Of a stretch of DNA of 64,000 nucleotides, positions 1,776 through 63,933 are shown piece after piece. Origin of the DNA: a virus; the IMG/VR virus record IMGVR_UViG_3300032240_002575, positions 13,606 through 77,605 of that record; one strand, given 5' to 3'. Position 1 is the stretch's first letter; every line of letters starts with the position of its first letter. Below the pieces are notes generated by a model. It searched no databases, was not told the DNA's origin, and saw only the letters and a list, made by a program, of their open reading frames with translations. The position numbers and the translations under genes are program-made.

Positions 1776-1800
1776 AATTTCTTTTTATCTTATAAATAGT

Positions 1801-5433: not shown

Positions 5434-8400
5434 TTACTGAATATTTTCTTTTGAATTGGTCTAATGCTGTATCACCTTTGATAGTTCCGAAATAGAAATG
5501 GAATGGTGCTCCAACAATAAATTTATTACCTGTAGCATTGAATGTGTTACTCGATTGATAGTTACCATTTGCATCTTTTGCAAAAATGTAACCTGTCGCG
5601 TATAAATCAGAAACGCTTGAAGTTGTTGGTCTAAAATAATTTGGTGTCCCTAAAAATGTTCTATCCAATGATTGGTATCTTTGGTTTTGAACTATATCGC
5701 TTGGTCCAGTTGCCCAATTATTCAACTGACTTCCAAAAATTAAATTATTTTGGTTGTCCTTCAGTTCCCATTTGTAATGTGGTACAACTTGTGATTTGTT
5801 ACCATATAAATAAGGATAATTTGCACTGTTGTTCGAAGTTCTAAAGTTAATTCTACCAGGTGTTAAATAATCTTTAGTTTGAATGTTTTGTGTTGTTGAT
5901 GAAAACCACACCGCCATTACTGGATTACCAGGAGTACCCAATACATTTGTCGGTGAATTTGTAGGTTTTGTTGCATAATATTCAGGTGAAAAATTAACGT
6001 TACCTATTTCAGAGTTGATTGAACAAAGTTGAACAAAATCACCATCAACCCTTGCTTTTGGCGTAAAAAACCCTAAAAACCCAGCGCCATTATCGGGTCT
6101 AGAAAAAAGTATTGCAAGTGAATCATTTAAGAAACCAAAAATTCTTGATAAAAACCCTGAATCCACCATTCTGGATATAACAAACAAGTTTACTAAATCT
6201 GAAGTATCACCATATGATGTGGATTCTAAAGTCGGTATTATATACGCATTTGTTGATGGGTCAAAAACAATTTCAGAATAAAAACTATCTTTGAAACCTA
6301 AATTAATTAATGTTGTCGGAAACATTAAATTTAATGTGTTAACCGCTCCTCCGTCTTGGTCGGACAATCTACCAACAAAGTTTTTTGTATAAACATTATA
6401 AGGACTACTTCTGAAATAAAAGTTTACGGTATTTTTATCGTAGTAAACTAATTCATCAGGAAATACGGGGTCTTCAGGTTTGTTTGACGTATCATAAAAA
6501 GTATCCACTTGTATTGGGAATAAGTACAGAGAACCGTTAACCCAATTATTTGTAAATGTTTGAGAAAGAACTCCTCTACATAACCCATACATAAATCTAA
6601 ATCTATACCCCCACTCTGACCATATTTGAACATCATAAACAATATTAAAAGGGTTCAAAGGGTCGTGAAATAAAATATAACAACCGTTTTTTACAAAATC
6701 ATAACCAGCATCAAACGCATTACAAGGTTTTTTTACTTTGAACGTACTTCCAAACCCGTCATAACATTCAAGTGGAACCATTCCCGGACAACTGAAACTT
6801 GTTAAAACTTCACCTTCGTAAGGTTGTCCTGCAATATCAGCACTTACTTGTTTAGCACCAGAACCATACCCTTGACTGACACTAGTTGGTCCACCAGTAC
6901 CCGCCAATTTATAAATGTTAAAATTAATATTTTGTTGTAATATACTTGGATTTGTGTTCCAATCTTTACCATCCAAACCATCAGAAGTCGGTAGTCTATC
7001 AGTTCTCATAACGTTTTTTGACGAGTTGTTCATAAACATATAAAACGTAGGACCAAATGCCTTTGTATAATAATCACTAAACACCGGCCATCCACCATTA
7101 TAAACAGTATTATAAGGTAAGACCGCCATAAAACTACCTCCACTGTTGTCTTCAGAGTTGTCATATTTACTACTTGATGCTGTCGAATCCCAAAACCCAT
7201 TGTTTGCCGTAGAAATTAGTTTGTTTCCACTATTTTTTAGGTATAAAGTTGGGTTGTAGTAAGGTCGATTATTAACATCCAAAGAACCATAATACCCAAT
7301 TGCTGTTGAAGTATAAGCTGTGAATTGTTGACCATAAGTTGTACTACCAGCAATACCAGGTTGAAAAAAATATGATGAGTAAAAAACCTCATTTTGTCCA
7401 TTATTTGTAAAAGGTTGAACACTGATGGCAGTTGAATTCAAAGCTTGTATTGGATAATTTAATCTTGTTTGAGCCGTAATTACAACATCGTCTTCATTAG
7501 GGAATCCTAATATTTTTCCTATACCATATTTGTTGTCATATTGAGGCGAATAAGGGTCTACTCCTCTTTGTAATATTAATATAATTTGATTGGAATAGTT
7601 TTGATATTGTTGTAAAGGGTTAACTTTCTCAGTCTTAATAATTTGGTCTGTACCAAACTCAACCCATGTATCGATGTTGGTAGGAGTGTTCAAAATGTTC
7701 GGAAAACTTTGGGTAGTACCAGTGTTCCATAGATTTGCCGCTTGAGATACTGTAATTGCGGTAACCACTTGAAAATATTCTATATCTCCAGCAAACAAGT
7801 TTGTTGTTATTGTAGAACCTGTTGGAAGACTGTATGAAACCGTTGAATTTGTTGTTTGAGTGTTTGCATAATTGATATTAACTACAGTACTACCCGATGC
7901 TTTGGTTGTACCACTAATCCCGTTAATAACACCGTTGTTTGTTGATGCAGAATAATAAAAGTTTTCATCAGTACTATTCATGGGTGAGACAAAAGTCAAT
8001 AAATCACCAGAATTATAAGTATTTCCATCGGTTGCAAGGATTGTTATTGTATTATCAAAATGAAATTTACCAACATTCGAATTTTCTGCAAAAGTTACTT
8101 TAATTCTATTTTGTCCAGTAAAGTAGTTACCTCTTTGATTGAATAAATTTATTCTTTCACCTATTGGTAAATCACGGGATGATGCGCCAATTTTTTGTCC
8201 ATTGTAATCAAATAAAGTGTGGGTTACTGGAGTTTTATAATACAGTTGTGTTTTATCATCTGAAAAACCTCCAGTTGCAATTGAATAAACAGTAGCCAAT
8301 GAGTTAATATCATTTTGAGTCCCTCCAGAAAATTTTTTCAAATAAGAGTTGAGATAATATGGTGCAAACGACAAATAACTTAAAGCCCCAGTTGCATTTG

Positions 8401-50846: not shown

Positions 50847-51224
50847 TTAACAACAAGCAGTTTGTGAAATAAAACTTGGTTGGATATTGATGTATAATTC
50901 TTCTCTGATTGGTAGAATCAAACTCCCTTCATCATTTTTAATCAAAAATTGACCTTGATATCTTCCAGGCGTGTTTGTGTCTCTTGAAGTGAATTGGAAG
51001 TAAACATAGTATTCAGGAGTCGCTCCCAAAGGTAAAATTAAAGGAACAATACTACAAGGTGCTGAAACAATTTTAGGAATTCCTGTTTCAACCTCTATCA
51101 TTGTAAAAAAAATTGTGGAAACAGCTAAATCTTCCATCAGTTGTAGATAACCTGCTCTACCATCTTTAACAACCTGCATTTTTAATACAGGAAGAGTTGC
51201 ATTTTGCTTTATGTAAAATTCCAT
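50847..51224 (-). CDS. BppU N-terminal-like beta-sandwich protein
   Basis: Pattern FYIKQNATLP.L...Y.F...DT..PG.Y.GQF.I......LP. Confidence 0.5.
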   Translation of the reverse strand: MEFYIKQNATLPVLKMQVVKDGRAGYLQLMEDLAVSTIFFTMIEVETGIPKIVSAPCSIVPLILPLGATPEYYVYFQFTSRDTNTPGRYQGQFLIKNDEGSLILPIREELYINIQPSFISQTACC

Positions 51225-51240
51225 AACAATAAATATATTG

Positions 51241-53574
51241 TTATGACTCTTTTCTTAAATTTCTATCATAATGCTCAAATCTATCATGTTCGGTAGGGGT
51301 CATCAATAAGAGACCTGGATTCAGTTTACATTCTTTCACGAGTTGGTACATATGACTCATCCATGTTTGTTCGAATGGATGTGCCCACGTAGTATCTAAA
51401 AACATTTTTTGATTACCTGTTCTTGTCACAATTTGTGGCCAATTACAATAGTATACTTCACCTGTTACGTACGGAACACCTTGATAAGTTCTAACTGAAT
51501 TATAAACTGCTTTTGGAGCATTTGGGTCTAAACCCTGAACTGGTAATCTATCTTTACCTGGCCAATATTTTTCTCTAACATTTTGAGGTACATTATACCA
51601 AGACCATTGCGTTCCGTTATCACCAAAAAACTCACTAAAATTAAGTTTAAGGAAATCAAAATTTTCTTTTTTAACAATTTGTAACGTTTTTGAATATAAA
51701 TTTGGAACATATCTATTAAACCCGTTTCTACATACCTCACCTTCTTTTGGATAAAAGAACATATCATCTTCAAAAAACAAATAAAAATCTAAATCAGTTT
51801 CATTTTGAAAATGTTCAGCAATCCATTGACGACCACCACAAATGCCTAAATTGTCTTTTTTTATATGTTCAAAATCAAATTCTTCACATAGTTCAGCATA
51901 TTCTTCAAATGTGGATTCATCTGAAGAATTATCTAATAAAAACTTTTTAGTTTTATAAATGTAGTCCCTATCGTAAGATATCATTGATTCAATCAACGTT
52001 CTAAATTGTTTTGGGCTATTAAATGTTATGACGTATAATCCAGTTTTGTTAACATTCAAATCGTCGTTTAGTGACTTTACACCCGAAGCGTTTTTAAGTT
52101 CATAAGCATCATTTTTTAAATCTTCACAAAATTTACCAATTAAACCGTTCTCGCCTATCTCAACATAATCAATCAAAGATGGATGTTTATATAACATAAT
52201 ACTAAAAATTGATTCTTCGGTACCCATATACCCATCACTAATTGTTTTGAATAAAGTATTGTAGTAAATTGTATTAATTTCTGAAATTGTATGTTTTGGA
52301 CCACCAAATAAACCTCCTCTACAAACTAACTTAATATCGTTGTTAGCGTATTGGTTTATTTCAGGGTATGAAAAACCGTGTATTTCATTATTAGCGTTAT
52401 ATGGGAATGCAACAAAGCCAAATTTACTAAAAACTTCAGGTAATTTATTTTGTATTTTATCATGAGTAAAATATCCAGGATGTATTGTGTTTGTTATACC
52501 AGCATCTAACCAAAAAAGATGTGATGAGTTAAATTGGTCAACAATTCTAGCATCATTCATTAAAAACATCTTTGACATAACTAAAGGGTTGTACCACTCT
52601 AATTTTCCTTGAGTTGATTCCGATAACCACCCTGCTTGATTATACCATTTAGAGTCTGTTCTTATTTCCTGTATTTTATCATATGGTACGGTTGTTTTAA
52701 ACCAATCTTTACTTCTAACAACAAATTGAGTATTTGACCTATCTCGTCTTTGAAATACAAACGATTGTAATTCTTCTTCACCAAAAATAATCATATTCGA
52801 CTCAATTTTTAATAATTGTTCAAACTTATCTAAATAATGTTGAAATGAACGAGACCATCCTTCGGTTAAACCATCTCTATTAATATTCCATAATCCAGTC
52901 ACAATAGTAACACCGCTGTTATTCTTCGTTTCATTAGGTACAGGTCCACCAACAATGTGTCTACCCAATTGGTCACAAACAACCTCAAGATTATATTCAA
53001 TATTTCTTTCTTTAAAGAAATCACGTATTGCCGCGTCAACACCTGGTAAATCAAATCTTCTGAAATCATGGAAAAGAATAACACCACCATCAGACATTCT
53101 ATCATAAATTTGAGATAAACTATCATATATTGAATCATAAAAATCACCATCTAAAAATGCAAATGATATTTTTTCAGGTAAATCCTCACTTTTAATATCT
53201 TTAAACCATCCTTTAACAATTTTAGGTGGGGTTAAATTGTTGGTTTTAAAGTTATTAATTAAAACTTCTTCGGTTGTTTTTAATGTAAACGGCTTCCAAC
53301 CTGTATTGATTTCATATTCACTCAAAGGGGGTAACCCTTCAAAAGAATCAAAAACTGTTAAGGTTTTATTTGATTCATAAACATCTAATGTTTTTCTAAT
53401 ATATTTTGATGATTCACCCACATAACATCCTAACTCAACAACATCACCCTCAATGTTATTTTCTAATACATTTGATAGGTTTTTAACTATCTGTGTTATT
53501 TGGTCATGGTTAATGATTGAAGAATCAACTTTTTTATTATCAAAGTTTAATATTACGTTTAAAAGATTTTCCAT
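51241..53574 (-). CDS. Three-domain fusion: TylF/MycF-type O-methyltransferase + HtrL/YibB-like domain + GT-A-like glycosyltransferase domain
   Basis: TylF motifs GDVVELGCYVG, FDSFEGLP, KGWF, LDGDFYDS. HtrL-like VTGLWNINR...YNPLVMSK...FWLDAG. C-terminal LLDNS...NLGICGGR...FFEDD. Confidence 0.7.
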   Translation of the reverse strand: MENLLNVILNFDNKKVDSSIINHDQITQIVKNLSNVLENNIEGDVVELGCYVGESSKYIRKTLDVYESNKTLTVFDSFEGLPPLSEYEINTGWKPFTLKTTEEVLINNFKTNNLTPPKIVKGWFKDIKSEDLPEKISFAFLDGDFYDSIYDSLSQIYDRMSDGGVILFHDFRRFDLPGVDAAIRDFFKERNIEYNLEVVCDQLGRHIVGGPVPNETKNNSGVTIVTGLWNINRDGLTEGWSRSFQHYLDKFEQLLKIESNMIIFGEEELQSFVFQRRDRSNTQFVVRSKDWFKTTVPYDKIQEIRTDSKWYNQAGWLSESTQGKLEWYNPLVMSKMFLMNDARIVDQFNSSHLFWLDAGITNTIHPGYFTHDKIQNKLPEVFSKFGFVAFPYNANNEIHGFSYPEINQYANNDIKLVCRGGLFGGPKHTISEINTIYYNTLFKTISDGYMGTEESIFSIMLYKHPSLIDYVEIGENGLIGKFCEDLKNDAYELKNASGVKSLNDDLNVNKTGLYVITFNSPKQFRTLIESMISYDRDYIYKTKKFLLDNSSDESTFEEYAELCEEFDFEHIKKDNLGICGGRQWIAEHFQNETDLDFYLFFEDDMFFYPKEGEVCRNGFNRYVPNLYSKTLQIVKKENFDFLKLNFSEFFGDNGTQWSWYNVPQNVREKYWPGKDRLPVQGLDPNAPKAVYNSVRTYQGVPYVTGEVYYCNWPQIVTRTGNQKMFLDTTWAHPFEQTWMSHMYQLVKECKLNPGLLLMTPTEHDRFEHYDRNLRKES

Positions 53575-53607
53575 TTATTGATTTGTTTTTTTGTTTGATT
53601 TTTGTAA

Positions 53608-54237
53608 TTATTGTTTTTGTCTGCAAGTCCAAACTACATTTTCAAATGTTTCTTTATTATAATAATTCAAATTATTAGATATACAAGAATCTTTGATATT
53701 TTCGTTAGATATTTCAAACCAATTCCAAAGTTTTCTGTTAACTCTTTCTTCAAAGATTTCTTTGTTCTCACCATAATCATGAGCCATGATAAAATCACCT
53801 GATTTTATAAATTTAGATAAAACATTAAACTCACCAATTTTATTTCCACCATCACATAACACAATTGTTATTCCATCTTGTTGGATAAAATCAATAACGT
53901 CTTGTTTAACTTCTTGGTAGTTATTCATAAAAATATCTTCGACTCTAACATCTATATCACTTTTAATCATGTCTTCGTACCAACCACGTCCATATATGTC
54001 ATATGATAAGATGTCTATTGGGTGATTTATTTCGTCAGATACCCATTTTAAAAATTGTGTGAATCCACCTAGAGCGGTTCCTATTTCTAAAATTCTAACT
54101 GGTTTAACTTCATTTAAAAAGTTGTAAAAAACCTCATAAACTTCATGTGTTTGTTGGGCCGCCATACCCATGAACGAAGATAATCCATCATTTTCTTCTA
54201 AGTTAATTTTTCTTGTAATTTTGTGTTCTAGTGACAT
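53608..54237 (-). CDS. Class I SAM-dependent methyltransferase (CmcI / rhamnosyl O-methyltransferase-like)
   Basis: Motifs KPVRILEIGTALGG, SYDI, LCDGG and GDFIMAHDY. Confidence 0.7.
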   Translation of the reverse strand: MSLEHKITRKINLEENDGLSSFMGMAAQQTHEVYEVFYNFLNEVKPVRILEIGTALGGFTQFLKWVSDEINHPIDILSYDIYGRGWYEDMIKSDIDVRVEDIFMNNYQEVKQDVIDFIQQDGITIVLCDGGNKIGEFNVLSKFIKSGDFIMAHDYGENKEIFEERVNRKLWNWFEISNENIKDSCISNNLNYYNKETFENVVWTCRQKQ

Positions 54238-54238
54238 A

Positions 54239-55096
54239 TTATAGTGTTATTATTTTTTTCAATAGGTTATTTTTTTGAAAATATTTTTCTTTAATTAATT
54301 CTAACCCTTTTATTTTTTGATTATATATTTCATCGGAGTTATTTAAAATGTTATTTAACATGTTCTCAATACCGTCAATATCGTTAATATCTTCTATTAA
54401 AATGTATCCATCTTCAGGATATATTTCTTTAATGTTTTTACAACCAAAATAAATTGGGATTGTATTCGTTAATATGTTGTCGTAAAATTTTTCAGTTATC
54501 CAATTTTTTTCAAATGAATTTTCTATTGAAATATTAAATTTGTAATCAACTAAAGCATCTTTACGTTTTGGACTAGTACTACCATCAAAAACATCTATTG
54601 TACCCATCTGTCTAATTTTTTCAAGTATCCTATATCTTTGAGGATATAAACAGGTGGTACCATTATCAGTATTTAAGTTTGTTATTGAAGTTGAAATTTT
54701 TTTAGTTTTTTCAAAAACGGAGTTAGATAAATTATCATAATTCCAAAAATCTAATGTGTCAACCCAAGGACCTCTTCCACCATAAAATGTATGAGCAATA
54801 GATTCAACAAAATTACCAAAATATAACTCTTCCGAAAACCCATAAATTGTAGTATTTTTTTCAAAATGTTTTTGATGTGCTCCAGTCCAAGAAGGTTCAT
54901 GTGGGAACACAAAGGATTTTGAGTTTTCTTTAATTTCTTCGTTCACATAATTGAAAAATACGATTACATCATAAGAATCATCAAAAACAAATTCAACATT
55001 TGATAAATCAATTTCAGGTGTTTTAAATTGTCTAACTAATCTTTCGGTTAGATTTTTAGACGAGTCGTAACCAGATGATAGTTTTATTTTTCTCAT
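54239..55096 (-). CDS. Glycosyltransferase family 10 (alpha-1,3/4-fucosyltransferase-like)
   Basis: GT10 signature YKFNISIENS...WITEKFYD......IPIYFG, with an upstream HEP motif. Confidence 0.8.
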   Translation of the reverse strand: MRKIKLSSGYDSSKNLTERLVRQFKTPEIDLSNVEFVFDDSYDVIVFFNYVNEEIKENSKSFVFPHEPSWTGAHQKHFEKNTTIYGFSEELYFGNFVESIAHTFYGGRGPWVDTLDFWNYDNLSNSVFEKTKKISTSITNLNTDNGTTCLYPQRYRILEKIRQMGTIDVFDGSTSPKRKDALVDYKFNISIENSFEKNWITEKFYDNILTNTIPIYFGCKNIKEIYPEDGYILIEDINDIDGIENMLNNILNNSDEIYNQKIKGLELIKEKYFQKNNLLKKIITL

Positions 55097-55881
55097 CGTT
55101 TAATTTTTTCCCAATTATTATGATTGAACCCAACTTTAAACACTTCACACTGGTTACCCCAACCCATTTCTCCTACATTATATCCGGCAATAAGTGCGGA
55201 GATACCAATCTCAAATGATTCCATATCATAAGTGATTACATTGTTAGGGTCTTGTGTTTCAAATTTAGTACAAAACTTTTCAAACTCATCACACATCACA
55301 GGTAATTTGTCGTTGTTCTTAATCAATAAAATATGTTCACTTGGTAAAGTTGCATTCCTCCATTCAGGATTTACACCATAAAAAATGAATTTATTGTCAA
55401 ATAATTTTTTCCAAGAACTATTTTTTAAAGTATCCATGTATTCGTTTTCAGCCCACTCGTATGTTCTGTTGGCCAACAAAACTAACATGTCAAGACCACT
55501 TGATTCCCATTCATTTATTTTTGAGTCAATTGTGTTGACATCAACATTATCAGTTAACCCTGCATCACAATCTAAATAAAGAACCCAATCGTATTTACTG
55601 TCAACATCTTTTATTGCGTGAAACTTTAAAAGTTGATTAAATGCTCCAACATGAGTTTTGTGGTTTTCTAAACTATATTCTCTAATGATAACTCTATCAG
55701 GATTGTTATTGATTTCATCAACAAAATATTTTGATTGATTTGTTGATATCATTACATCATATGGTGTTTTTGTTAGAATGTCATTTATCAATCTTTTAGC
55801 AAATGTGGTATAGATTTCTGAACCTTCTCGTTGTGAATTAACGAATGATATTGCGGATACTAATATGTTTTTCATATTCAA
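55093..55881 (-). CDS. Putative GT-A-fold glycosyltransferase
   Basis: DxD motif in K...YDWVLYLDCD; lies within the glycosyltransferase operon. Confidence 0.55.
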   Translation of the reverse strand: MNMKNILVSAISFVNSQREGSEIYTTFAKRLINDILTKTPYDVMISTNQSKYFVDEINNNPDRVIIREYSLENHKTHVGAFNQLLKFHAIKDVDSKYDWVLYLDCDAGLTDNVDVNTIDSKINEWESSGLDMLVLLANRTYEWAENEYMDTLKNSSWKKLFDNKFIFYGVNPEWRNATLPSEHILLIKNNDKLPVMCDEFEKFCTKFETQDPNNVITYDMESFEIGISALIAGYNVGEMGWGNQCEVFKVGFNHNNWEKIKR

Positions 55882-55885
55882 AATT

Positions 55886-56626
55886 TTAAAACCATCTTGG
55901 GTGAAAGTAGGTTGTTTTACTACTTGTTATTCTGTAAAGTTTATTGTTTTTTAAAAAAGATGAAACTCGTTTTTCAAAAGAGTCTCCTGCGTATTTAGGA
56001 TAATGAATATCGGATAATTCGTTTTGTTCATTATAAATTTGAGATTTAAATTCATTTACAGGTATTAAAAAACACTGGTCTGAAAAGTTCATAGTGTATG
56101 ACCAATCAGGGTGATTGTTAGTTAATTCATTACCATTTGATATGTAAAAGTTTTCTTCGTCTTTAGCTTGATGATATTGTAAATTCCAAACCGGGTTAAC
56201 AACCTTAACAGTATTGTTTGTTTTCATTATTTCAATACCGTTATTTATCCAATCATAATCAGTTTTTTCAGTTAAAGAATCTCCAGTTAAATAAACCATG
56301 TAGTCAGTTTCACATAAGTAAACCGCTAAAAGTGGTGCAATAGAATACCAATATCCACCATTAAAAGAATTTTTATCAATGTTAAAGTATTCCAAAACTT
56401 TGTCAGAAAAATCATCGGTGAAGTAAAAATCATCAAGTATGTTATTATCTTTTAATTTTCTAGCTGATTCCTCAACAAGTTCTCGATTATTAACATTGGT
56501 TATTATTAAAACTCTTTTTAAAAATGGGTAATTTAGATTATCAAGTTTTTTTAAGAATCCACCCTGATTAATCATCGCATCCCAATCACCTTCAAAACAT
56601 TGAGTAAAAAAAGTAATACTATTCAT
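55886..56626 (-). CDS. Putative glycosyltransferase-like protein
   Basis: TDYMVYLTGD, FSDQCFL and a terminal YFHP are reminiscent of GT-A proteins; operon context supports this. Confidence 0.4.
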   Translation of the reverse strand: MNSITFFTQCFEGDWDAMINQGGFLKKLDNLNYPFLKRVLIITNVNNRELVEESARKLKDNNILDDFYFTDDFSDKVLEYFNIDKNSFNGGYWYSIAPLLAVYLCETDYMVYLTGDSLTEKTDYDWINNGIEIMKTNNTVKVVNPVWNLQYHQAKDEENFYISNGNELTNNHPDWSYTMNFSDQCFLIPVNEFKSQIYNEQNELSDIHYPKYAGDSFEKRVSSFLKNNKLYRITSSKTTYFHPRWF

Positions 56627-57891
56627 TAACTTACTGTATTATGGTTTAATTGACCTGTTATTCTATCACACCATCCTTTGGATTCAGAGTGAGGCCACAC
56701 AACCCAATACGATGGTAATTGGTCTGTTTGAAATTCTCTCCAAACTTTACAATAATTATCAGGGTCTCTCATAAATCCAGCAATTTCATTTTTATCCGCA
56801 TCTTTTCTGTACAATGTTTCATCTTTGTCATTATGGAACGCAACAACCCAAAAGTCATAATCAGTTTCAGGAACTTGAGAATATCCAATATCGATACAAT
56901 GTTTGAACATCATACAGAAACTATCCCTCCATTCTTGTTCTGTTTCAAAATTATATGGGTTTGGTGGATAATTTTTGTCCAAAGTATATTTGTCGATTGC
57001 TCTTTTTGAAAAAAGAATTCCAGCATATTTTTCATAATCAGTTAATGTTCTGATAGGACCAAAACCATAAGGGCCATCATGACCTTCTTGTGTTTCACCG
57101 TCCATACCAAACAATTTTCTATTTGTTAAATGGGAGTGACTATTTTTTTGTCCCCAAGTTTTGTCATCATCCCATTGTTTTGTTCTACCCTTACGAGTGT
57201 ACTCATGATATACAACAGGAATGTGTGGGTGGAATAAATCATAACCCCAAGTGTAAGCTCTCACCGCAATTGAAATTTCTTCACCATGGAAATAGTATTC
57301 AGGGTTGTGTTGAACTTCAGTTGAGAATTGTCCTAATGTAAAACAGAAGTGAGCCGAGTAAAATCTTGCGGTTACAGGTTTTTTCATTTCCATCCATCCT
57401 GGTATTGTTTCAGGTAAGAAGAATACCGCACCTTCAGGAATGAATCGGTCAAAAACCATTCTCCAAGCATCAGTTGCTCTTCCTGCAGGGTCATTGTCGG
57501 GGTCAAATGAAGGAACGTAGCCCGTAAGTAGAGGCTTCTTATATCCGTCCTTCTGTAACCCCTTTATCATCTTGATAAGGATATCGTCCCAATCCTTAAC
57601 AAATCTCATGTGAGAGTCAATTTGTAGTGTGTAAGTTTCACCTTTATAAAGTTGTTGAACCTGATGTCTTGCCCAACATACACCTTTAGCATCTTGATAT
57701 GGAATATCCAAGATTCTAAATCTCTTGTCGTTTCTATATTCATCCAAATTATCAAAACCATCTTCGTCACTGTATTGTCGTGCAATACCTAAAACAAGAT
57801 TATTTGGTTTTTTTGCGTTTGCCAACATATCTTTAATTGTTGGAACTAATTGTGGGTCTCTGTAAGAAGCTATCTGAACAAATATTTTCAT
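56626..57891 (-). CDS. GT60-type polypeptide/hydroxyproline alpha-N-acetylglucosaminyltransferase (Pfam GlcNAc family; Skp1 Gnt1-like)
   Basis: Motifs IFVQIASYRDP, KGVCWARH..Q.LY.GE.Y.LQIDSHMRF...WD, FHGEEI...R.YT.GYD...P....YH.Y are diagnostic for the Gnt1/OGNT family. Confidence 0.82.
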   Translation of the reverse strand: MKIFVQIASYRDPQLVPTIKDMLANAKKPNNLVLGIARQYSDEDGFDNLDEYRNDKRFRILDIPYQDAKGVCWARHQVQQLYKGETYTLQIDSHMRFVKDWDDILIKMIKGLQKDGYKKPLLTGYVPSFDPDNDPAGRATDAWRMVFDRFIPEGAVFFLPETIPGWMEMKKPVTARFYSAHFCFTLGQFSTEVQHNPEYYFHGEEISIAVRAYTWGYDLFHPHIPVVYHEYTRKGRTKQWDDDKTWGQKNSHSHLTNRKLFGMDGETQEGHDGPYGFGPIRTLTDYEKYAGILFSKRAIDKYTLDKNYPPNPYNFETEQEWRDSFCMMFKHCIDIGYSQVPETDYDFWVVAFHNDKDETLYRKDADKNEIAGFMRDPDNYCKVWREFQTDQLPSYWVVWPHSESKGWCDRITGQLNHNTVS

Positions 57892-57904
57892 GAATAATGT
57901 ATTT

Positions 57905-57912
57905 TATAAATA
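57905..57912 (-). promoter_or_regulatory. TATTTATA leader motif (candidate late promoter) in front of the glycosyltransferase operon
   Basis: The same 8-mer precedes many structural genes in this window. Confidence 0.5.
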
Positions 57913-57919
57913 AAAATAA

Positions 57920-57947
57920 AAAACCCTCCACAAAGGTGAAGGGTTTT
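57920..57947 (-). terminator. Intrinsic terminator between the mucin-like LamG gene and the glycosyltransferase operon
   Basis: Minus strand reads AAAACCCTTCAC-CTTT-GTGGAGGGTTTT, then TTATTTTT. Confidence 0.65.
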
Positions 57948-57968
57948 CTGAAATATATTGTTTTGATT

Positions 57969-59087
57969 TTAGTACGGAGAACTACTCGAGTAAACAACGC
58001 CATAATTGTTGTCAACTGTTTGGGTACCCGATGTATCAATAAGATAAGTACTAGATGTGTTAACGTTAAATAATAAAACCGTATTTGAACTAACAGTCAA
58101 CGGTACTGTTGGTGTAGGTATCGTTGAACTTGTTGGGTCAAGCGATGTTGAACCAACTCTAACTTTAATATCTGTAGAATTTCCTGTCATAAAGAATCCA
58201 AAATAACCGATATCAAGTGTTGTAGCACTGTAATTTCTGTTGTCCGTTTGAACGCCACACGCAGTTGCTGTTAGTCCTGTTCCCATCCAAACGTTTTCAG
58301 TTGTTCCACTTCTCGAAACTGCAAAATATGTCCAAGTATCGGGTTGTAATGTTTGTGGTAACGTGTACGTCAATGAGCTATTATATTTTCTTACAGCTAA
58401 AGTTGTGTCACTTACAATAACCGATAAAGAGTCTTTACCTGCACCACCTAATATACCACCATTATATGAACCCGCAGGGTTTGGAGTTTTATACCAAAAC
58501 TCAACCGAGAAATCATTTGTACCAACGGTAATACCAGGGGTAATAGTTAAGGACGTACCTGAGAAAAGAAGTGAACCAGGTCTTACTGGTGTTGGAGATG
58601 GAGTTGTCGTGTGAGTTGGAGTTATTGTTGGTGTAGGTGTTGTTGTGCTTGTTGGGGTTACAGTTGTTGTTGGAGTTACAGTTGTTGTTGGAGTTACGGT
58701 TGTAGTTGGTGTAGGTGTTGTTGTGCTTGTTGGGGTTACGGTTGTTGTTGGTGTAGGAGTAGTTGTTGAAGTTGGAGTTATAGTTGGAGTTACGCTCGTT
58801 GTTGGTGTTGGAGTAGGTGTCGTTGTTGATGAAGGGGTTGGGGTTGGCGTAGATGTTGAAGAAGGTGTCGGTGTTGGTGTTAAAGGGTACGTTCCATCAT
58901 TTACTAAATTAATACTTGATTCAAAAACTTTAGCAGTGCTATAAGTTCCGTTTATCAACCAAATATTTTTTGTTTGATTTGGTTCAAGATTTATCTGATA
59001 TTCCCACATGGAATCATCGCATCTTCTGTAATTAAAGTTGATTACGGTAGTTCCGGTATTCGTTAAAGTATATTTACTACATGCCAT
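57969..59087 (-). CDS. Mucin-like (Thr/Pro-repeat) protein with an N-terminal Cys-containing module and a C-terminal LamG/ConA-like domain
   Basis: About 100 aa of TPTPTT repeats. DFSVEFWYK and WTYFAVSRSG are LamG-like motifs. Confidence 0.7.
   Translation of the reverse strand: MACSKYTLTNTGTTVINFNYRRCDDSMWEYQINLEPNQTKNIWLINGTYSTAKVFESSINLVNDGTYPLTPTPTPSSTSTPTPTPSSTTTPTPTPTTSVTPTITPTSTTTPTPTTTVTPTSTTTPTPTTTVTPTTTVTPTTTVTPTSTTTPTPTITPTHTTTPSPTPVRPGSLLFSGTSLTITPGITVGTNDFSVEFWYKTPNPAGSYNGGILGGAGKDSLSVIVSDTTLAVRKYNSSLTYTLPQTLQPDTWTYFAVSRSGTTENVWMGTGLTATACGVQTDNRNYSATTLDIGYFGFFMTGNSTDIKVRVGSTSLDPTSSTIPTPTVPLTVSSNTVLLFNVNTSSTYLIDTSGTQTVDNNYGVVYSSSSPY
58585..58880 (-). repeat. Low-complexity Thr/Pro coding repeats
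   Basis: Degenerate GTTGGTGT/GTTGGAGT repeats encoding (TP)n/TTT. Confidence 0.8.
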
Positions 59088-59125
59088 AGTTTTAGTTTTT
59101 TATTATAAATATACATTAAAGTAAA

Positions 59126-59146
59126 AACCCACCATAAAGGTGGGTT
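59126..59146 (-). terminator. Hairpin/terminator after the ubiquitin-like gene
   Basis: AACCCACC-N5-GGTGGGTT, followed by TTT on the minus strand. Confidence 0.55.
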
Positions 59147-59153
59147 ATATTTT

Positions 59154-59402
59154 TTATTTTACTAAAAGAACGTATTCAAATCTCGGATTTTTTGGTAATA
59201 ACTCTGAATCATTTTTTAATTCGTCTGTACCATTCCATAAGGTTTGACTTACAACTTCATAAGGTGTTGTAATTGAGTTTCTTATTTGAGTTTTTAACTC
59301 CAAAACTGTCATAGTATCATTAACGTCAAAAGGACTTGCATATGTTGTAATTTCACCTTTTGGTTTTTCTCTATCTATTGTAATTTTTACTGATTTTTTC
59401 AT
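59154..59402 (-). CDS. Small protein with a ubiquitin-like (beta-grasp) sequence pattern
   Basis: FDVNDTMTVLELKTQI...P....QTLWNG.ELKND..L parallels ubiquitin LEVEPSDTIENVKAKI...P..QQRLIFAGKQLEDG..L. 82 aa, no C-terminal GG. Confidence 0.5.
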   Translation of the reverse strand: MKKSVKITIDREKPKGEITTYASPFDVNDTMTVLELKTQIRNSITTPYEVVSQTLWNGTDELKNDSELLPKNPRFEYVLLVK

Positions 59403-59429
59403 ATATTTAATTTTTTATTTTTAGTTTAA

Positions 59430-61511
59430 TTAATCCCACCAAATGTAGTCGTTCATAGTGTAATCGTAGTTACCCGTATCTACTAACGTTGTTGATGTAA
59501 TTGTGCTTTCACTTACCAAATATATGTAGTGACGATTGTTTTCATTAATAACAACATTAAATCTATCACCACATGCATATGTTGACCACCAAGTTGTATA
59601 AGGTGTTACTTCATTATTTAATAAGTTAAAGTTAAAATCGTATAAATTAATATTTGCATTTCCACTTGAATCTAAATACGTAAACATAAATTTATCACTA
59701 CCCATTATGATATCATAATCTGAAGTACCAGGGAGTATGTGTGTACTTGTATATCCTGTTGGTGTTAATATGTTTGCCTTTCTTGTTGAAGGTTCAAAAG
59801 TTAACATCGCACTAACTTTAAGATAATCTTCTCTGAATTGATTTTGTGGTGTATAAACATTATATGTATTTGCAGAAAGAGTTAAAGTGTTTGATGTCAA
59901 GAATAAATTTGAAGTCTCATCAATAGTATAAGTTAATCCACTATAATTAATTAATTGGAAAAGCGAACCTTGATTTGTTGTGTATGTCCCAACATTAAAT
60001 GTAATTCCTGAAACCAAACCACCAAATGAACCATCATTATTTATGTGCATTAATGTACATCCAGCATAAAAATTTGTATATATTACAGTTACAAAACCAT
60101 CACCAACATTGTATCTATCTGTATATCCTTGATTACCTCCACCACTTACTGTAACGTTTGATGAAGTATATGTAACACCAGTATGAGTTAGTGCCATTGT
60201 TGAAACGTATCCGTTACCTGTATCACAAACTGTTTGAGCAATATTACTAGTTAAGAAATATGGTTGAATTGTTTTAGTTGAACCACTACTGTTTTGGAAA
60301 GTATAAGTTGTTAAATTTGTATCACCACTTAACATATAAATAATATCACAATAATTTACGTTAGTCCCTAATCCATTATAACTTGGGGTATTATATAATG
60401 TTAACACAAATGCTTCCGCACCACCATTATTTGGGGAAAAATTAGTATTAGAATTTAATGAGAAATCCGAGTAATTAGAACCTCTATTGTGAGTTGTTGT
60501 ATTTAACACATCAGTATTACCATCATATTGGAAAACAAACCAATCAATATTGCTGTCTGAACTGTTCCATAATATTGTGACTAATTTGTTATCACCATAA
60601 AATTCTAAATTATAGTTATTGTAAGTGTCTCCTGTTGAAAAATCTAATGTTTGTAATAAGTTACCATTTGAACCATCATAAATTTTTATTGTTTCATAGT
60701 TTGAACCTGAGTTTGCATAAGTAATTTCTAATGCGAAACTACCATCAAAATATGTGTAAAAATCCACATTATAGTCGGACCCGTTAAAATTACTAAGTTC
60801 AGTTAAATCTTGACCGTTAACAAGATAGTTTGTATATACACCTGTGTTGTCATCATATTTTGCAATCACAAAATTATTATTTGACATAACACCATCCCAA
60901 CTATTATAAAAATAAATTGATTGGTAAGAAGAGTCTGCGGTTAATGTGTATACATTTGAACCGTTAAAATATTTGTATATCCCATTATAATAATCTGAAA
61001 AATACGTAAGTTTACCTGCGTTTACATCATAATCATAATTACAATTACAATCTGCATAATAGTCTTCAATTACATTACCCGCAGCATCAGTGAAAACAGC
61101 CCATTGTAAATTACAAGTGTTTTGATTTTGGAAATAATATGTGTAACCCGAATTTGTTAAAGGATATACATCATTAATATACCAACCTGTATCATCTATA
61201 CCTAAATCAATAACTTGTGCGGTGAAGTCACCAAAATATGATATTGATTCCCCATAGTTATTACTATTAACCATTTTAGAAACAAATGAAAAACTTTGAC
61301 CTGTTACTGTTGATTCATTTATCACTAATTCATATGTGTAACCATATAATGGAACGTTAATTTGATAAGTTCCAAAATAATTTGGGTTCAAATAATCGAA
61401 CGGTATTGTTTGGGTACCTAAATTAATTGTACCTCCTGATAATGGTGAAAAAGTAACATTTGCGGTATCTCCACTTAAATTGTTACTTAGTATTCTTACT
61501 CCTAGTGCCAT
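59430..61511 (-). CDS. Beta-rich (possible propeller) virion-associated protein sharing an N-terminal module with 62506-63933
   Basis: 693 aa, rich in Asn, Tyr and Thr. N-terminus GVRILSNNLSG...GGTINLG.Q.IPF.Y....YFGTY. Confidence 0.55.
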   Translation of the reverse strand: MALGVRILSNNLSGDTANVTFSPLSGGTINLGTQTIPFDYLNPNYFGTYQINVPLYGYTYELVINESTVTGQSFSFVSKMVNSNNYGESISYFGDFTAQVIDLGIDDTGWYINDVYPLTNSGYTYYFQNQNTCNLQWAVFTDAAGNVIEDYYADCNCNYDYDVNAGKLTYFSDYYNGIYKYFNGSNVYTLTADSSYQSIYFYNSWDGVMSNNNFVIAKYDDNTGVYTNYLVNGQDLTELSNFNGSDYNVDFYTYFDGSFALEITYANSGSNYETIKIYDGSNGNLLQTLDFSTGDTYNNYNLEFYGDNKLVTILWNSSDSNIDWFVFQYDGNTDVLNTTTHNRGSNYSDFSLNSNTNFSPNNGGAEAFVLTLYNTPSYNGLGTNVNYCDIIYMLSGDTNLTTYTFQNSSGSTKTIQPYFLTSNIAQTVCDTGNGYVSTMALTHTGVTYTSSNVTVSGGGNQGYTDRYNVGDGFVTVIYTNFYAGCTLMHINNDGSFGGLVSGITFNVGTYTTNQGSLFQLINYSGLTYTIDETSNLFLTSNTLTLSANTYNVYTPQNQFREDYLKVSAMLTFEPSTRKANILTPTGYTSTHILPGTSDYDIIMGSDKFMFTYLDSSGNANINLYDFNFNLLNNEVTPYTTWWSTYACGDRFNVVINENNRHYIYLVSESTITSTTLVDTGNYDYTMNDYIWWD

Positions 61512-61543
61512 AGTTTTTTATTTATAAATATTTGTTTTGTTTA

Positions 61544-61918
61544 TTATATAATTGGTTGATATGTTATATTTCCCGTTGGAATATTCAAATAGGTTAAATC
61601 ATTTGAAGGGGGCATTGGTGTTGGAGTTGGTGTAGGTGTAGGGGTCGGTGTTGTTGTCGATGAAGGTGTCGGTGTTGGTGTTGCAGTCGATGAAGGTGTT
61701 GGTGTTGGAGTAATTGGGTATACTCCATCATTGGTTAATTGTAAATTAGGTTCAAAAAGTTTTGCGATTTGGAACGTATCATTTATTAACCATATATTTT
61801 TGGTTTGATTAGGGGCAAGATTAACTTGGTATTCCCACATAGAGTCATCACATCTTCTATAATTAAAATTAATCGATGTGGTTCCAGTATTAGATAAAGT
61901 ATATTTACTACAAGCCAT
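61544..61918 (-). CDS. Short mucin-like protein, paralogue of the 57969-59087 N-terminus
   Basis: MACSKYTL.NTGTT.INFNYRRCDDSMWEYQ module followed by a TP repeat. Confidence 0.7.
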   Translation of the reverse strand: MACSKYTLSNTGTTSINFNYRRCDDSMWEYQVNLAPNQTKNIWLINDTFQIAKLFEPNLQLTNDGVYPITPTPTPSSTATPTPTPSSTTTPTPTPTPTPTPMPPSNDLTYLNIPTGNITYQPII

Positions 61919-61947
61919 TTTTATTTTTTATATAAATATCAAGTTGT

Positions 61948-62499
61948 TTAACATACGCCAACAACTACAACTTTAGTTCCGCTAAGTTGTATAAAAATTC
62001 CACCATTTGAAATGATACCTTTTGATAAAGGTGGTATTGTTAGTGCGGAATCACCATAAACATGGTCGCCAGGAACCAAAGACCCAAAAGGTTTTTCTGA
62101 ATAAACTACAGTGTTTGTTGGTGTACCAAAATGGAACGACTCACAAACGTTTTGATATGACCCACCAGTTACTAAATTATAAATGTATACCATTGTCGGT
62201 GTTATTGTTGGTGTTATTGTTGGAGTTACAGTGTTTGTTGGGGTTGGAGTTGGTGTTGGTAAGGTAGGTGTCACTGTTGGTGTAATTGTATTTGTTGGGG
62301 TTGTCGATGGACATAAACCCACATTGACAATATCAAGAGGTGCACCATAATATTCTACTACAACATTGTTAGCACAAACATATTGTGTTTGAAGTGTACC
62401 TATTTGTGTTATAGTTATGTCACCAGTACATCCTGTTGTACTATAATAACCTTCTTGTACGTTATTGTAATTTGTAATTCTAAAATAATAGCAGTCCAT
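61948..62499 (-). CDS. Mucin-like protein with Cys-containing terminal modules
   Basis: MDCYYFRITN...C...C...GLCP, then a TPT linker, then a Cys-containing C-terminal domain. Confidence 0.65.
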   Translation of the reverse strand: MDCYYFRITNYNNVQEGYYSTTGCTGDITITQIGTLQTQYVCANNVVVEYYGAPLDIVNVGLCPSTTPTNTITPTVTPTLPTPTPTPTNTVTPTITPTITPTMVYIYNLVTGGSYQNVCESFHFGTPTNTVVYSEKPFGSLVPGDHVYGDSALTIPPLSKGIISNGGIFIQLSGTKVVVVGVC

Positions 62500-62505
62500 A
62501 TTTTA

Positions 62506-63933
62506 TTATGTAAATGTTCCGTTGAACGTTGTTAGGTTATATGTTAAACTTCTCACATCTTCCCCATCAATACAACTTGTCATTAAATCTAAAAATATGG
62601 TTTTACCTGGAGCTACTGCACCATATGCCGAAGTAAATGTGTTGTTGATAAATGTATAATTACCAGGGTCAGGAATCATTGTCCCACCTTTATATAAAGT
62701 CACCTCCAAAACAACAGGATTAGAACCTACAGTACCGTACCACCCCGCGTTCGCTAAAATTGTAATAATATTCTGTCCTGGATATTGTGTCTTGAATTCA
62801 ATCAAGTCAATTAACACACTTTCAAAACCCGTGCCTGTGTTGTCACCACCCCATGATAAAATTGGGTTACCACTTTGTGGCCATTCAGAAGAACAACACC
62901 AACCAATATAGTCAGATAATGTATTCTGCCCAATATTTGGTACAGTTACCCTCGTCCTTGTATCTAAATCGGTTCCATCAGTAAACGAATACGTGAACAC
63001 CATATAATCGGCATCGAAAGTAAAAGGACCAGGTACAAATGGTATAGGTGTCGGAGTTGGTGTGGTTGTCGGAGTATATGTTGGTGTAATACTTGGTGTT
63101 AAAGTTATTGTTGGTGTTATTGATGGAGTTATGGATGGTGTTGGTGTAGGGTTAGGAATTACAACATAAGTTAAATTTCCGTTTGGTATTGGTATTGAAT
63201 ACAAACCACTTGGAGGTGCTGGTGTTGGTGAAGGTGTTGGGGTTGGAGTGTGAGTTGGTGTATGAGTAGGAGTCAATGATATGGTAGGAGTAATTGATGG
63301 TGTTAACGATATTGTAGGTGTAATTGACGGAGTCAATGAAATTGTTGGTGTTATAGTTGGTGTTAATGTTGGAGTTGGGGTTGGGGTTGGTGGACATAAA
63401 CCTAAATCAACAACTGTTAATGAGTTAACACCTCCCGTTCTTACTACCGTGTTCTTTTTAGCACACAAAGATAAATTTGAATTTTGACGTAATATATTAC
63501 CAGTTAGTAAGTACCCATCACAATTAATATAAGAATAAATTACATTACCTCTATCAGAACTATTAATTAGATTATAATATTCACAACCCTCAAAATTTCT
63601 TGTTGGAGTTATAGTTGGAGTAATACTTGCCGTTGGTGTGGTTGTTTTAGTTGGAGTTATAGTTGGAGTAATTGTTGGTGTTAATGTAATTGTTGGGGTT
63701 ACAGTACTTGTTAGTGATGGTGTTGGTGTTGGTTCAGGGACAGTAACTGTATACGTATAATCGTATGTTGGTACATAACAACTATATGTTCCATAATAAT
63801 AACTTGAATAATACGTAAATGGTATTACTTGATTACCTAAATTAACCGTTCCTCCTGTTTCAGGAAAGAAAGTAACTTCAGTTGTTAACCCGCTTAAATT
63901 TACACTTGAAATTAATACACCACAATCTGCCAT
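62506..63933 (-). CDS. Multi-module mucin-like protein with three Thr/Pro linkers
   Basis: 475 aa: N-module, TP linker, Cys module, TP linker, short motif, TP linker, C-terminal DLDTRT domain. Confidence 0.7.
   Translation of the reverse strand: MADCGVLISSVNLSGLTTEVTFFPETGGTVNLGNQVIPFTYYSSYYYGTYSCYVPTYDYTYTVTVPEPTPTPSLTSTVTPTITLTPTITPTITPTKTTTPTASITPTITPTRNFEGCEYYNLINSSDRGNVIYSYINCDGYLLTGNILRQNSNLSLCAKKNTVVRTGGVNSLTVVDLGLCPPTPTPTPTLTPTITPTISLTPSITPTISLTPSITPTISLTPTHTPTHTPTPTPSPTPAPPSGLYSIPIPNGNLTYVVIPNPTPTPSITPSITPTITLTPSITPTYTPTTTPTPTPIPFVPGPFTFDADYMVFTYSFTDGTDLDTRTRVTVPNIGQNTLSDYIGWCCSSEWPQSGNPILSWGGDNTGTGFESVLIDLIEFKTQYPGQNIITILANAGWYGTVGSNPVVLEVTLYKGGTMIPDPGNYTFINNTFTSAYGAVAPGKTIFLDLMTSCIDGEDVRSLTYNLTTFNGTFT
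63040..63735 (-). repeat. Three Thr/Pro-rich coding repeat tracts, including (TPSITPTISL)-type 30-nt units
   Basis: Visible in the translation; the DNA units are synonymously diverged. Confidence 0.75.

Follow-up and report, generated by a model that had tools for sequence, protein, structure and literature searches.

The 64,000-nt stretch of DNA analysed here (the window; G000:C1:13606-77605) comes from an uncultured freshwater jumbo phage and contains a six-gene operon, led by a glycosyltransferase (GT) of family GT60, that lies directly beside four genes whose products contain long tracts rich in Thr and Pro. From its gene content the operon is well supported as a glycan-building one, and the locus is probably, though far from certainly, a phage-encoded cytoplasmic O-glycosylation system for the phage's own Thr/Pro tracts. 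In the proposed mechanism, the soluble GT60 enzyme would act first and attach N-acetylhexosamine (HexNAc) to hydroxyl groups of Thr (or Ser) within the long Thr/Pro tracts that the phage's own modular proteins contain, and by family analogy this first sugar would be alpha-linked N-acetylglucosamine (alpha-GlcNAc) from UDP-GlcNAc. A conserved two-domain glycosyltransferase (the dual GT) would then add the next one or two sugars, and a strain-variable cassette would finish the glycan, the enzymes here being a GT10-like protein, two methyltransferases (one CmcI-like, one TylF-type) and two small proteins that are candidate GTs. The product would be glycosylated stalks, the glycan differing between closely related phages. 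We infer the acceptor, the sugar, the linkage, the order of these steps and the virion location; exposure of the tract proteins on the virion is somewhat less likely than glycosylation of the tracts.

The window is the right-hand part of a 77.6-kb IMG/VR record (G000) with a CheckV completeness of 25%. Its products include a tail sheath, a baseplate wedge protein, a DnaB-like helicase, a ribonucleotide reductase, a UvsX-like recombinase and a family-B polymerase (PolB), and this combination of tail with replication and repair genes shows that it is part of the genome of a jumbo phage of myovirus type. G001 (309,177 bp), a relative collinear with it, is rated complete; megablast against isolate phages found no DNA-level relatives of the window. 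The close relatives referred to below are 80 loci whose GT60 is 85-96% identical to that of the window, 74 of which span the region from GT60 to the dual GT.

The GT60 enzyme, its conserved partner and the variable cassette

The operon consists of six minus-strand open reading frames (ORFs) in which neighbours overlap by 1-4 nt or are separated by gaps of 1-33 nt, just as the original prediction, made from the sequence of the window alone, had described six co-oriented, overlapping or abutting genes from 57891 to 51241. The encoded proteins and domains are as follows.

56626-57891, minus strand: GT60 (PF11397) glycosyltransferase, 421 aa, soluble; proposed initiating polypeptide HexNAc-transferase
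55886-56626, minus strand: 246-aa protein of the variable cassette, possibly GT-A
55093-55881, minus strand: 262-aa variable-cassette protein with a hydrophobic-DCD motif; GT-A candidate
54239-55096, minus strand: 285-aa protein of the variable cassette with a GT10 C-terminal domain
53608-54237, minus strand: 209-aa class I S-adenosylmethionine-dependent methyltransferase of the variable cassette, weakly CmcI/FtsJ-like
52933-53574, minus strand: TylF-type O-methyltransferase domain, residues 1-214 of a 777-aa ORF (51241-53574)
51241-52932, minus strand: conserved two-domain GT, residues 215-777 of the same ORF; proposed extender of the first sugar

The 421-aa protein is well supported as a GT60 enzyme by profile, fold and motif. 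It matches PF11397 in Pfam with an E value of 1.7e-66 (225.5 bits, cut-off 21) in two stretches, at profile positions 2-43 and 93-349 of 352, and it matches phrog_24687 with an E value of 1.6e-167. Its AlphaFold model is confident (predicted local distance difference test, pLDDT, 94.9; predicted template modelling score, pTM, 0.90), and the first ~47 Foldseek matches of that model are all polypeptide GalNAc-transferases (ppGalNAc-Ts), at E values of about 5e-11. In VIA the 29 best PDB entries are likewise all ppGalNAc-Ts (Z 18.9-22.8, about 270 aligned residues), other GT-A enzymes scoring Z 17 or less; superposition on the ppGalNAc-T catalytic domain gives a root-mean-square deviation of about 3.4 Å over about 270 residues. 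The original prediction had assigned this protein to GT60 and was to be abandoned if the fold proved to be missing; the fold is present. Residues D92-x-H94 and H229 are invariant in 48 homologs, down to 33% identity, and their spacing and the structural alignment ranges suggest that they form a putative Mn2+/UDP-sugar site.

In the model, the stretch from residue 327 to 414 (about 90 residues) folds into a small beta domain, and Pfam detected neither a GT2 nor a ricin domain in the protein. PDB sequence searches with the enzyme, singly or as a 48-sequence profile, gave no useful match, and by sequence the protein falls outside GT27, the likeness being one of fold only. Judged from the model, the enzyme would resemble GT27 in its way of working without being a member of that family. 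GT60 itself is large, with 4,547 representatives at the 50% cluster level, and it occurs on at least 442 IMG/VR contigs and in at least 563 prokaryote species genomes. Several metagenomic proteins (P0122, P0123, P0125 and others; 900-2,461 aa) contain two to four tandem GT60-like stretches. Scans of viral contigs with the distant representatives P0199 and P0145 and with the enzyme of phage Xoo-sp13 returned no matches, and distant phage lineages were reached through isolate records and prokaryote genomes. A 74%-identical homolog, P0091, which lies on a 100.6-kb contig, is listed as from 'Candidatus Elulimicrobium' in nr and as '[bacterium]' by NCBI; because of its identity to a jumbo-phage GT60, phage contigs may be present in that 'Candidatus Elulimicrobium' bin.

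What is conserved alongside GT60 is the two-domain GT, rather than the GT10 protein or the methyltransferases. None of the 74 relatives spanning the locus lacks the dual GT, and the genes conserved among the 80 are GT60, the 777-aa gene in its C-terminal two-thirds, the 125-aa gene downstream and PolB. In most relatives the dual GT stands alone as a protein of about 557 aa, its fusion to TylF being limited to the window and a few others. Pfam places TylF at residues 15-199 of the 777-aa protein (E 3.7e-28) and HtrL_YibB at residues 221-469 (E 6.9e-18), and the C-terminal third is GT-A by fold, in agreement with the TylF-HtrL-GT fusion recognised at the outset. The model of the dual GT (pLDDT 80) finds its best Foldseek matches among tandem GT-A enzymes, namely LH3/PLOD3, LARGE1, Mimivirus R699, COLGALT1 and chondroitin polymerase. 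Its HtrL_YibB domain has a GT6-like fold (Z about 13), and the second domain, with an invariant EDD motif, has an inverting-type GT-A fold that resembles GnT-I, POMGnT1 and B4GALNT1 (Z 14.7).

The pair also occurs in the isolated jumbo phages XacN1, Xoo-sp13 and CM1/RAS14, which infect Xanthomonas and Stenotrophomonas, at 38-49% identity; in XacN1, Xoo-sp13 and CM1 the dual-GT homologs (38-41% identical) close the GT60 cluster. Variable genes lie between the two in the isolates too, including a carbamoyltransferase in the Xanthomonas phages, and the PolB of these isolates is not close to that of the window.

The genes between the two core enzymes form a hypervariable cassette and not a fixed pathway. 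The 74 loci show 19 architectures and about 48 protein clusters in this interval, the DNA homology between the window and G001 breaks exactly between 52902 and 56614, and the CmcI-like, GT10, 262-aa and 246-aa genes are each present in few of the 80 relatives (the 246-aa gene in 1 of them). Pfam searches with 44 cassette representatives identified FkbM, CmcI and other methyltransferases, GT10, GT11, GT7, GT25, GT2-like and PLOD-type GTs, and occasionally HAD or nucleotidyltransferase domains, so that the cassette content is, by family, clearly of a glycan-building kind. No initiating phosphoglycosyl transferase, flippase/transporter or polymerase family was found among these representatives or the operon genes.

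Within the cassette of the window, the 285-aa protein matches the C-terminal domain of Glyco_transf_10 (PF00852; E 9.7e-17, 61.6 bits, cut-off 23.9, positions 3-133 of 182), which upholds its description as GT10 fucosyltransferase-like at the level of the predicted family. The label CmcI-like suits the 209-aa methyltransferase less well: its CmcI match (22.2 bits) lies under the 23.2-bit cut-off and is tied with FtsJ, although a relative in the same cassette position matches RMNT_CmcI at E 1.4e-7. For the two proteins first described as GT-A-like there are leads but no Pfam match. The 262-aa protein has, besides its DCD motif, a weak match to phrog_3317 (glycosyltransferase; E 0.003) and Atlas neighbour clusters with GT8 in 20% and Mannosyl_trans3 in 11% of members; ATG at 55875 is its likelier start, and the Atlas record begins at residue 3. 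The Atlas neighbours of the 246-aa protein are viral and bacterial hypothetical proteins, with GT2 in 31% of the members of one cluster (score 0.93).

A hydropathy scan of the operon and tract proteins detected no hydrophobic segment, the top 19-residue hydropathy of any operon protein being at most 1.17, and a search of the tract proteins for signal peptides found none; the enzymes and tract proteins of the locus are accordingly predicted to be a soluble system. Two features border the operon.

57949-57918, then 57912-57906, minus strand: terminator-like hairpin with a 14-bp stem, followed by TATTTAT, 21 nt ahead of the GT60 start
50847-51224, minus strand: 125-aa protein between the GT locus and PolB, kept in nearly all relatives and without a family match

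Since the hairpin and TATTTAT lie between the last tract gene and GT60, the operon would be its own transcription unit. Whether the 125-aa protein belongs to the system is uncertain.

Thr/Pro-tract proteins and their association with GT60

The four Thr/Pro-tract genes first noted directly upstream of the operon are all real, and the window contains no other tract ORFs. They are arranged as follows, together with two tract-free neighbours.

57969-59087, minus strand: 372-aa protein, candidate substrate; a 66-aa N-module is followed by about 110 aa of Thr/Pro/Ser tract, with a ConA/LamG-like domain at the C terminus
59154-59402, minus strand: 82-aa ORF amid the tract-gene cluster, following, in window coordinates, a hairpin (59146-59126)
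59430-61511, minus strand: 693-aa Asn/Tyr/Thr-rich protein with no Thr/Pro tract, its 64-aa N-module common to the 475-aa protein
61544-61918, minus strand: 124-aa protein with an N-module as in the 372-aa protein and a Thr/Pro tract; smallest candidate substrate
61948-62499, minus strand: 183-aa protein in which about 40 aa of Thr/Pro tract lie between a Cys-containing N-domain and a C-domain; size conserved in relatives (184-191 aa)
62506-63933, minus strand: 475-aa beads-on-a-string protein with three Thr/Pro tracts and a C-terminal domain (phrog_24956)

The original prediction expected such proteins to co-occur with GT60 on related phage contigs, and this was borne out: in each of the 53 close relatives whose upstream flank is long enough, a co-oriented tract gene lies within 8 kb. 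A wider survey of prokaryotes used a profile scan of one genome per species, which identified at least 563 GT60 loci, and the best 80 of these were analysed with crude gene calling, a tract ORF being one with a tract of 25 aa or more and rank being counted from the GT60/dual-GT core. Tract ORFs made up 9 of 157 genes at rank 1, 7 of 145 at rank 2, 3 of 128 at rank 3 and 1 of 122 at rank 4, and none of the 507 beyond. Pooled, tract ORFs are commoner at ranks 1-3 than farther away (19/430 vs 1/629), with an odds ratio of 29 and p = 3.6e-7. Several of the tract neighbours overlap core genes and are co-oriented with them, and they are otherwise unrelated to one another, including small proteins with Tat-like signals, a protein sorted by the type IX secretion system (T9SS), VgrG spikes, a crAss muzzle-domain protein, a LamG protein and a sedolisin-like peptidase. 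The difference in tract neighbours between loci with GT60 and the dual GT and loci with GT60 only (8/29 vs 10/51) is not significant (p = 0.42), and the tract association therefore belongs to GT60 rather than to the pair.

A second comparison was made at the level of whole genomes, by scanning for DNA that encodes TPTPTP with a degenerate pattern whose reversed control gives 0-1 matches. The GT60-positive records, which represent three lineages, contained 14 (G000), 20 (G001), 26 (Xoo-sp13), 29 (XacN1) and 19 (CM1) such sites, whereas none occurred in about 3.25 Mb from nine jumbo phages (Atu_ph07, SCTP-2, phiKZ, RaK2, phage G, S-SSM7, RSL1, CBB and GAP32), in none of which tblastn detected GT60. 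The resulting 5/5 vs 0/9 gives a Fisher p of 5e-4 by record and 0.006 by lineage. The nine controls are a convenience sample of well-known jumbo phages chosen by accession, and a PolB-based search for phylogenetically matched GT60-negative controls returned distant Salinibacter and Nostoc phages only. On the strength of these sequence comparisons, Thr/Pro tracts are well supported as the likely acceptors of the 421-aa enzyme.

The bacterial loci indicate that the system is not specific to phages. PqqD-type domains, which are peptide-recognition elements in pathways for ribosomally synthesized and post-translationally modified peptides, occur near GT60 in three forms: stand-alone (L185), fused to a tract protein (L118) and fused to GT60 itself (L163). 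In these operons (L163 9923-12243, L185 6828-13492 and L118 5275-12267) GT60, with PqqD fused to it or encoded nearby, is translationally coupled to small Thr/Pro proteins; L185 and also L135 have two GT60 paralogs each, and L118 further encodes a nucleotidyltransferase-family protein and a P-loop protein. Pfam found no PqqD domain in the operon or tract proteins of the window, and the phage version would therefore need another way to recognise its substrates. VgrG spikes of type VI secretion systems (T6SS) in Achromobacter, Ralstonia and Paraherbaspirillum (L157 15049-17520, L180 12267-15131 and L131 13900-16389), which contain Phage_GPD, Phage_base_V and Gp5_trimer_C domains, have terminal Thr/Pro tracts 45-135 aa long at their C-terminal ends and lie within two genes of a GT60 homolog.

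The closest cellular pair was found in a Saprospiraceae metagenome-assembled genome (MAG; L111, contig CALJOK010000014.1, 6349-13092), with GT60 69% and dual GT 62% identical to those of the window. The locus also encodes a sulfotransferase and a Thr/Pro/Ser protein with a Tat-like signal and a T9SS sorting domain, and its flanks, which encode an NAD kinase, a BamA-like protein, OmpA and NIF3, are chromosomal. By sequence it looks like a cellular counterpart and hints at a host or donor lineage. In a Lewinellaceae MAG (L113 7374-9751), GT60 and the dual GT have a tract protein as neighbour, and directly beside that protein is a 2OG-Fe(II) oxygenase (PF13640), which suggests that some cellular versions may hydroxylate proline first, unlike the phage of the window.

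Domain content and the positions of homologs suggest that the tract proteins most likely belong to the virion, in association with its fibres or baseplate, a step that we infer and that is the weakest link of the case. The C-terminal domain of the 475-aa protein, for which a PDB sequence search gave no useful match, recurs in a crAssphage 'putative tail protein', in XacN1 ORF372, which stands in a row of ORFs of 1,100-1,300 aa, and in an ORF of cyanophage S-SSM7 directly after gp9. The tract-bearing ORF325 of XacN1 (3,313 aa) comes after the baseplate wedge genes. The LamG-like domain of the 372-aa protein matches Laminin_G_3 at E 4e-4, below the cut-off. Among relatives, the tract module families range from 68 to 1,095 aa with tract totals of 0-362 aa, and this plasticity hints, by analogy, at the kind common in fibre genes. 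The 82-aa ORF matches no family, and a homolog of it was detected in none of the 80 relatives; for the 693-aa protein, neither tblastn relatives in isolate phages nor a PDB sequence match was found.

Experimental data bearing on such proteins come from XacN1, whose virions show at least two Schiff-positive protein bands, ascribed by the authors to the phage GTs ORF328 and ORF334 (Yoshikawa et al., 2018; PMC5852040). ORF334 is the GT60 homolog. XacN1 DNA is cut as predicted by BssHII, NaeI and SpeI (PMC5852040), which is evidence against bulky DNA glycosylation. Full-text literature searches turned up nothing that ties GT60/PF11397 to phages or bacteria apart from CAZy tallies, the XacN1 paper being the closest. 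New in this analysis are the recognition of the dual GT as the partner conserved with GT60, the hypervariability of the cassette, the statistics on rank distance and on whole genomes, and the connection with the published XacN1 data.

Farther along the contig, a 540-aa ORF (L187 (G000:C1) 7284-8906, minus strand; 32% Thr, 14% Pro) lies about 62 kb from the GT operon, so the tract proteins are not confined to the neighbours of GT60. An open ORF of at least 2,420 aa lies about 6 kb before the window start (L187 (G000:C1) 1-7260, minus strand). It consists of 29% Gly, 30% Ser, 20% Thr and 8% Asp with almost no Pro and no Lys/Arg, is built of Gly-X-Y triplets (657 GxyGxyGxy windows), and resembles a collagen-like Ser/Thr-rich fibre candidate that is conceivable as a further glycosylation substrate.

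The sequence TATTTAT is a candidate phage promoter element. It lies 11-24 nt 5' of GT60, of the tract genes at 57969, 61544 and 62506 and of the tract-free 693-aa gene at 59430; the leader originally said to be common to the operon and the structural-type genes is thus there for all of these, but the 183-aa tract gene at 61948 has no TATTTAT upstream. Across the window it precedes 18 of 44 gene starts in the coding orientation, 17 copies being 11-44 nt upstream and the eighteenth at -67, and its reverse complement precedes 4. A window scan did not find it before the genes for ribonucleotide reductase, DnaB, exonuclease and UvsX. The further idea that it marks late expression is not established, and TATTTAT cannot be called a late signal, because it also precedes a helicase gene, a superoxide dismutase (SOD)-fusion gene and the small gene preceding PolB.

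Weighing the alternatives

Several observations count against glycosylation of the phage's own tracts. The virion location of the tract proteins depends on domain homology, the position of homologs in other phages and the Schiff-positive bands of XacN1. For most of the domains, and for the 693-aa neighbour, no relatives are known. A short Thr/Pro tract also sits in an endolysin-like 149-aa ORF of G001 (G001:C1:195096-195545; L095 5096-5545), from which it follows that, in this lineage, tracts serve as plain linkers too. In G001 and Xoo-sp13 the majority of tract genes lie at a distance from GT60, and the adjacency in the window is therefore partly a matter of lineage. A tract gene is near GT60 in only 18 of the 80 prokaryote loci, the genome-level sample is small (14 records, the related ones not independent), and the GT10, GT11, GT25 and HtrL families are typical of lipopolysaccharide/lipooligosaccharide (LPS/LOS) synthesis. 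Of the original picture of writer, extenders, cappers and substrates in one locus, the adjoining enzymes and four tract genes remain, but the middle genes are variable and tract genes occur elsewhere too; given these distant genes and the far ORFs of the contig, the substrate set, if real, would be genome-wide rather than part of a closed writer-plus-substrates locus.

The alternative that survives best keeps the Thr/Pro tracts as glycosylation sites but places them mainly on host-cell proteins or non-virion phage proteins, a cellular system having been borrowed to alter the cell surface or secretome. The Saprospiraceae locus is consistent with it, since the closest cellular homologs (69% and 62%) lie there beside a T9SS-sorted Thr/Pro/Ser protein and a sulfotransferase, and a host of such a kind would offer cellular substrates; the virion location of the window's tract proteins is, moreover, a proposed one. 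It is nonetheless unlikely, given that the phage has tract proteins of its own, four beside the operon and at least one more on the contig, that these carry tail-associated domains, that 53 of 53 close relatives keep tract genes near GT60, and that XacN1 virions contain glycoproteins.

Quite unlikely is a role in remodelling a host surface glycan (LPS/LOS core, O-antigen or capsule), for instance against superinfection, with the Thr/Pro proteins as unrelated neighbours. GT10, GT11, GT25, GT2 and HtrL_YibB are common in LPS/LOS loci, the cassette is as hypervariable as O-antigen loci are, and the polymorphic GT clusters of jumbo cyanophages have been read as remodelling host-surface polysaccharides (Iyer et al., 2021; PMC7824862). 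The operon, however, encodes no initiating phosphoglycosyl transferase, flippase, polymerase or any membrane protein, its invariant first enzyme is nearest in fold to polypeptide GalNAc-transferases, and bacterial GT60 relatives are fused to or lie beside PqqD domains. Tract association at the level of both locus and genome also speaks against this role, as does S-SSM7, a cyanophage from the published reading, which lacks GT60 and TPTPTP-coding DNA.

That the tracts are unmodified flexible linkers and the operon acts elsewhere, on phage DNA bases or a small molecule, for example, is very unlikely: Thr/Pro linkers are common (the endolysin-like ORF has one), the operon adjoins PolB, and each complete relative has one thymidylate-synthase-family gene that in principle could be a hydroxymethylase, but that gene lies about 100 kb from GT60 in G001, XacN1 DNA is restricted as predicted, the fold is a ppGalNAc-T-like GT-A as against the GT-B of the known phage DNA glucosyltransferases, and chance adjacency does not fit p = 3.6e-7, 5/5 vs 0/9 and the PqqD fusions. 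DNA glycosylation in particular is unlikely. A route through hydroxyproline of the Skp1 type was also set aside; no PF13640 match to a prolyl hydroxylase was found in G000 (about 25% complete), the complete G001, XacN1 or Xoo-sp13, which makes that route unlikely.

Significance and comparison with known systems

Glycosylation of phage-particle proteins has been documented in few phages and has so far been tied to no general sequence signature. If GT60 writes on Thr/Pro tracts, a very abundant gene gains a function and a predictable substrate, and the Thr/Pro 'linkers' seen in fibres of phages, in T6SS spikes and in proteins that bacteria secrete would need a second look as possible glycosylation sites. 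The variable cassette would then be a new axis of phage diversity, with effects on adsorption, on resistance to proteases and on how hosts, grazers and immune systems recognise the phage. A broader and more tentative reading would place the GT60/dual-GT pair, as an unvarying core, at the centre of a mucin-type O-glycosylation system for Thr/Pro tracts that is widespread among prokaryotes and phages. In jumbo phages the cassette would give the fibre stalks of closely related phages different glycan 'serotypes', much like O-antigen diversity, and in bacteria the same enzymes would decorate T6SS spikes and secreted proteins. Were this so, mucin-type initiation would not be a eukaryotic invention.

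Freeman and co-workers are said to have reported in 2023 that mycobacteriophage-encoded glycosyltransferases glycosylate the virion. The proposed system would be similar in that its GTs and methyltransferases, too, are encoded by the phage and would act in the cytoplasm on structural proteins of the phage itself. The mycobacteriophage enzymes reportedly belong to other GT families, and their targets are C-terminal extensions of the capsid and tail tube, not long Thr/Pro stalks; we know of no GT60-flanked hypervariable cassette described in these phages. Mycobacteriophage virion glycosylation by phage enzymes is also echoed elsewhere (PMC11256854). The GT clusters of jumbo cyanophages (PMC7824862) share with the window several paralogous GTs and a composition that differs between related phages, but they include sugar-nucleotide synthesis genes and lack GT60, and S-SSM7 has neither GT60 nor TPTPTP DNA. 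The operon also differs from Wzx/Wzy- or ABC-type polysaccharide loci, having no transmembrane segments and no such families, and from T4-type DNA glycosylation, GT60 being of GT-A fold and XacN1 DNA being cut by three restriction enzymes.

The GT27 ppGalNAc-Ts of animals and apicomplexans are the best structural match to the GT60 catalytic domain (Z up to 22.8), and their acceptors too are Thr/Pro-rich. Unlike them, the phage enzyme has no sequence-level match to GT27, contains a C-terminal beta domain of about 90 residues where no ricin lectin domain is detected, and would act in the cytoplasm, not the Golgi.

Among protist enzymes, the OGNT of Trypanosoma cruzi acts on Thr of mucins, and Gnt1 acts on hydroxyproline of Skp1. 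The protist GT60 polypeptide alpha-GlcNAc-transferases, including Gnt1 of Dictyostelium and Toxoplasma in the Skp1 pathway (PMC6939170), share with the phage enzyme PF11397, the GT-A fold and the DxH...H pattern; Gnt1 is likewise soluble, and trypanosome mucins, like the candidate phage acceptors, are Thr/Pro-rich. In the Skp1 pathway Gnt1 is followed by the bifunctional two-domain PgtA (PMC6939170), and in the phage GT60 is paired with a conserved two-domain GT, although the domains of the latter are GT6-like and GnT-I-like rather than the GT2/GT74 of PgtA. The carriers differ as well, being a phage and bacteria rather than eukaryotes, no prolyl hydroxylase was found in the four phage genomes searched and there is no Skp1, and the phage enzyme is known from its sequence and model.

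The nearest parallel, XacN1, has a GT60 (45% identical), a dual GT (41%), variable genes between them and many Thr/Pro-tract ORFs, as the window does, and differs from it in host, GC content, an unrelated PolB and a carbamoyltransferase in the cassette; in the publication on it, GT60 is not mentioned by name and nor are the tracts (Yoshikawa et al., 2018; PMC5852040). With XacN1, Xoo-sp13 and CM1, cultured relatives that carry the GT60 pair are available, and the idea is testable in them.

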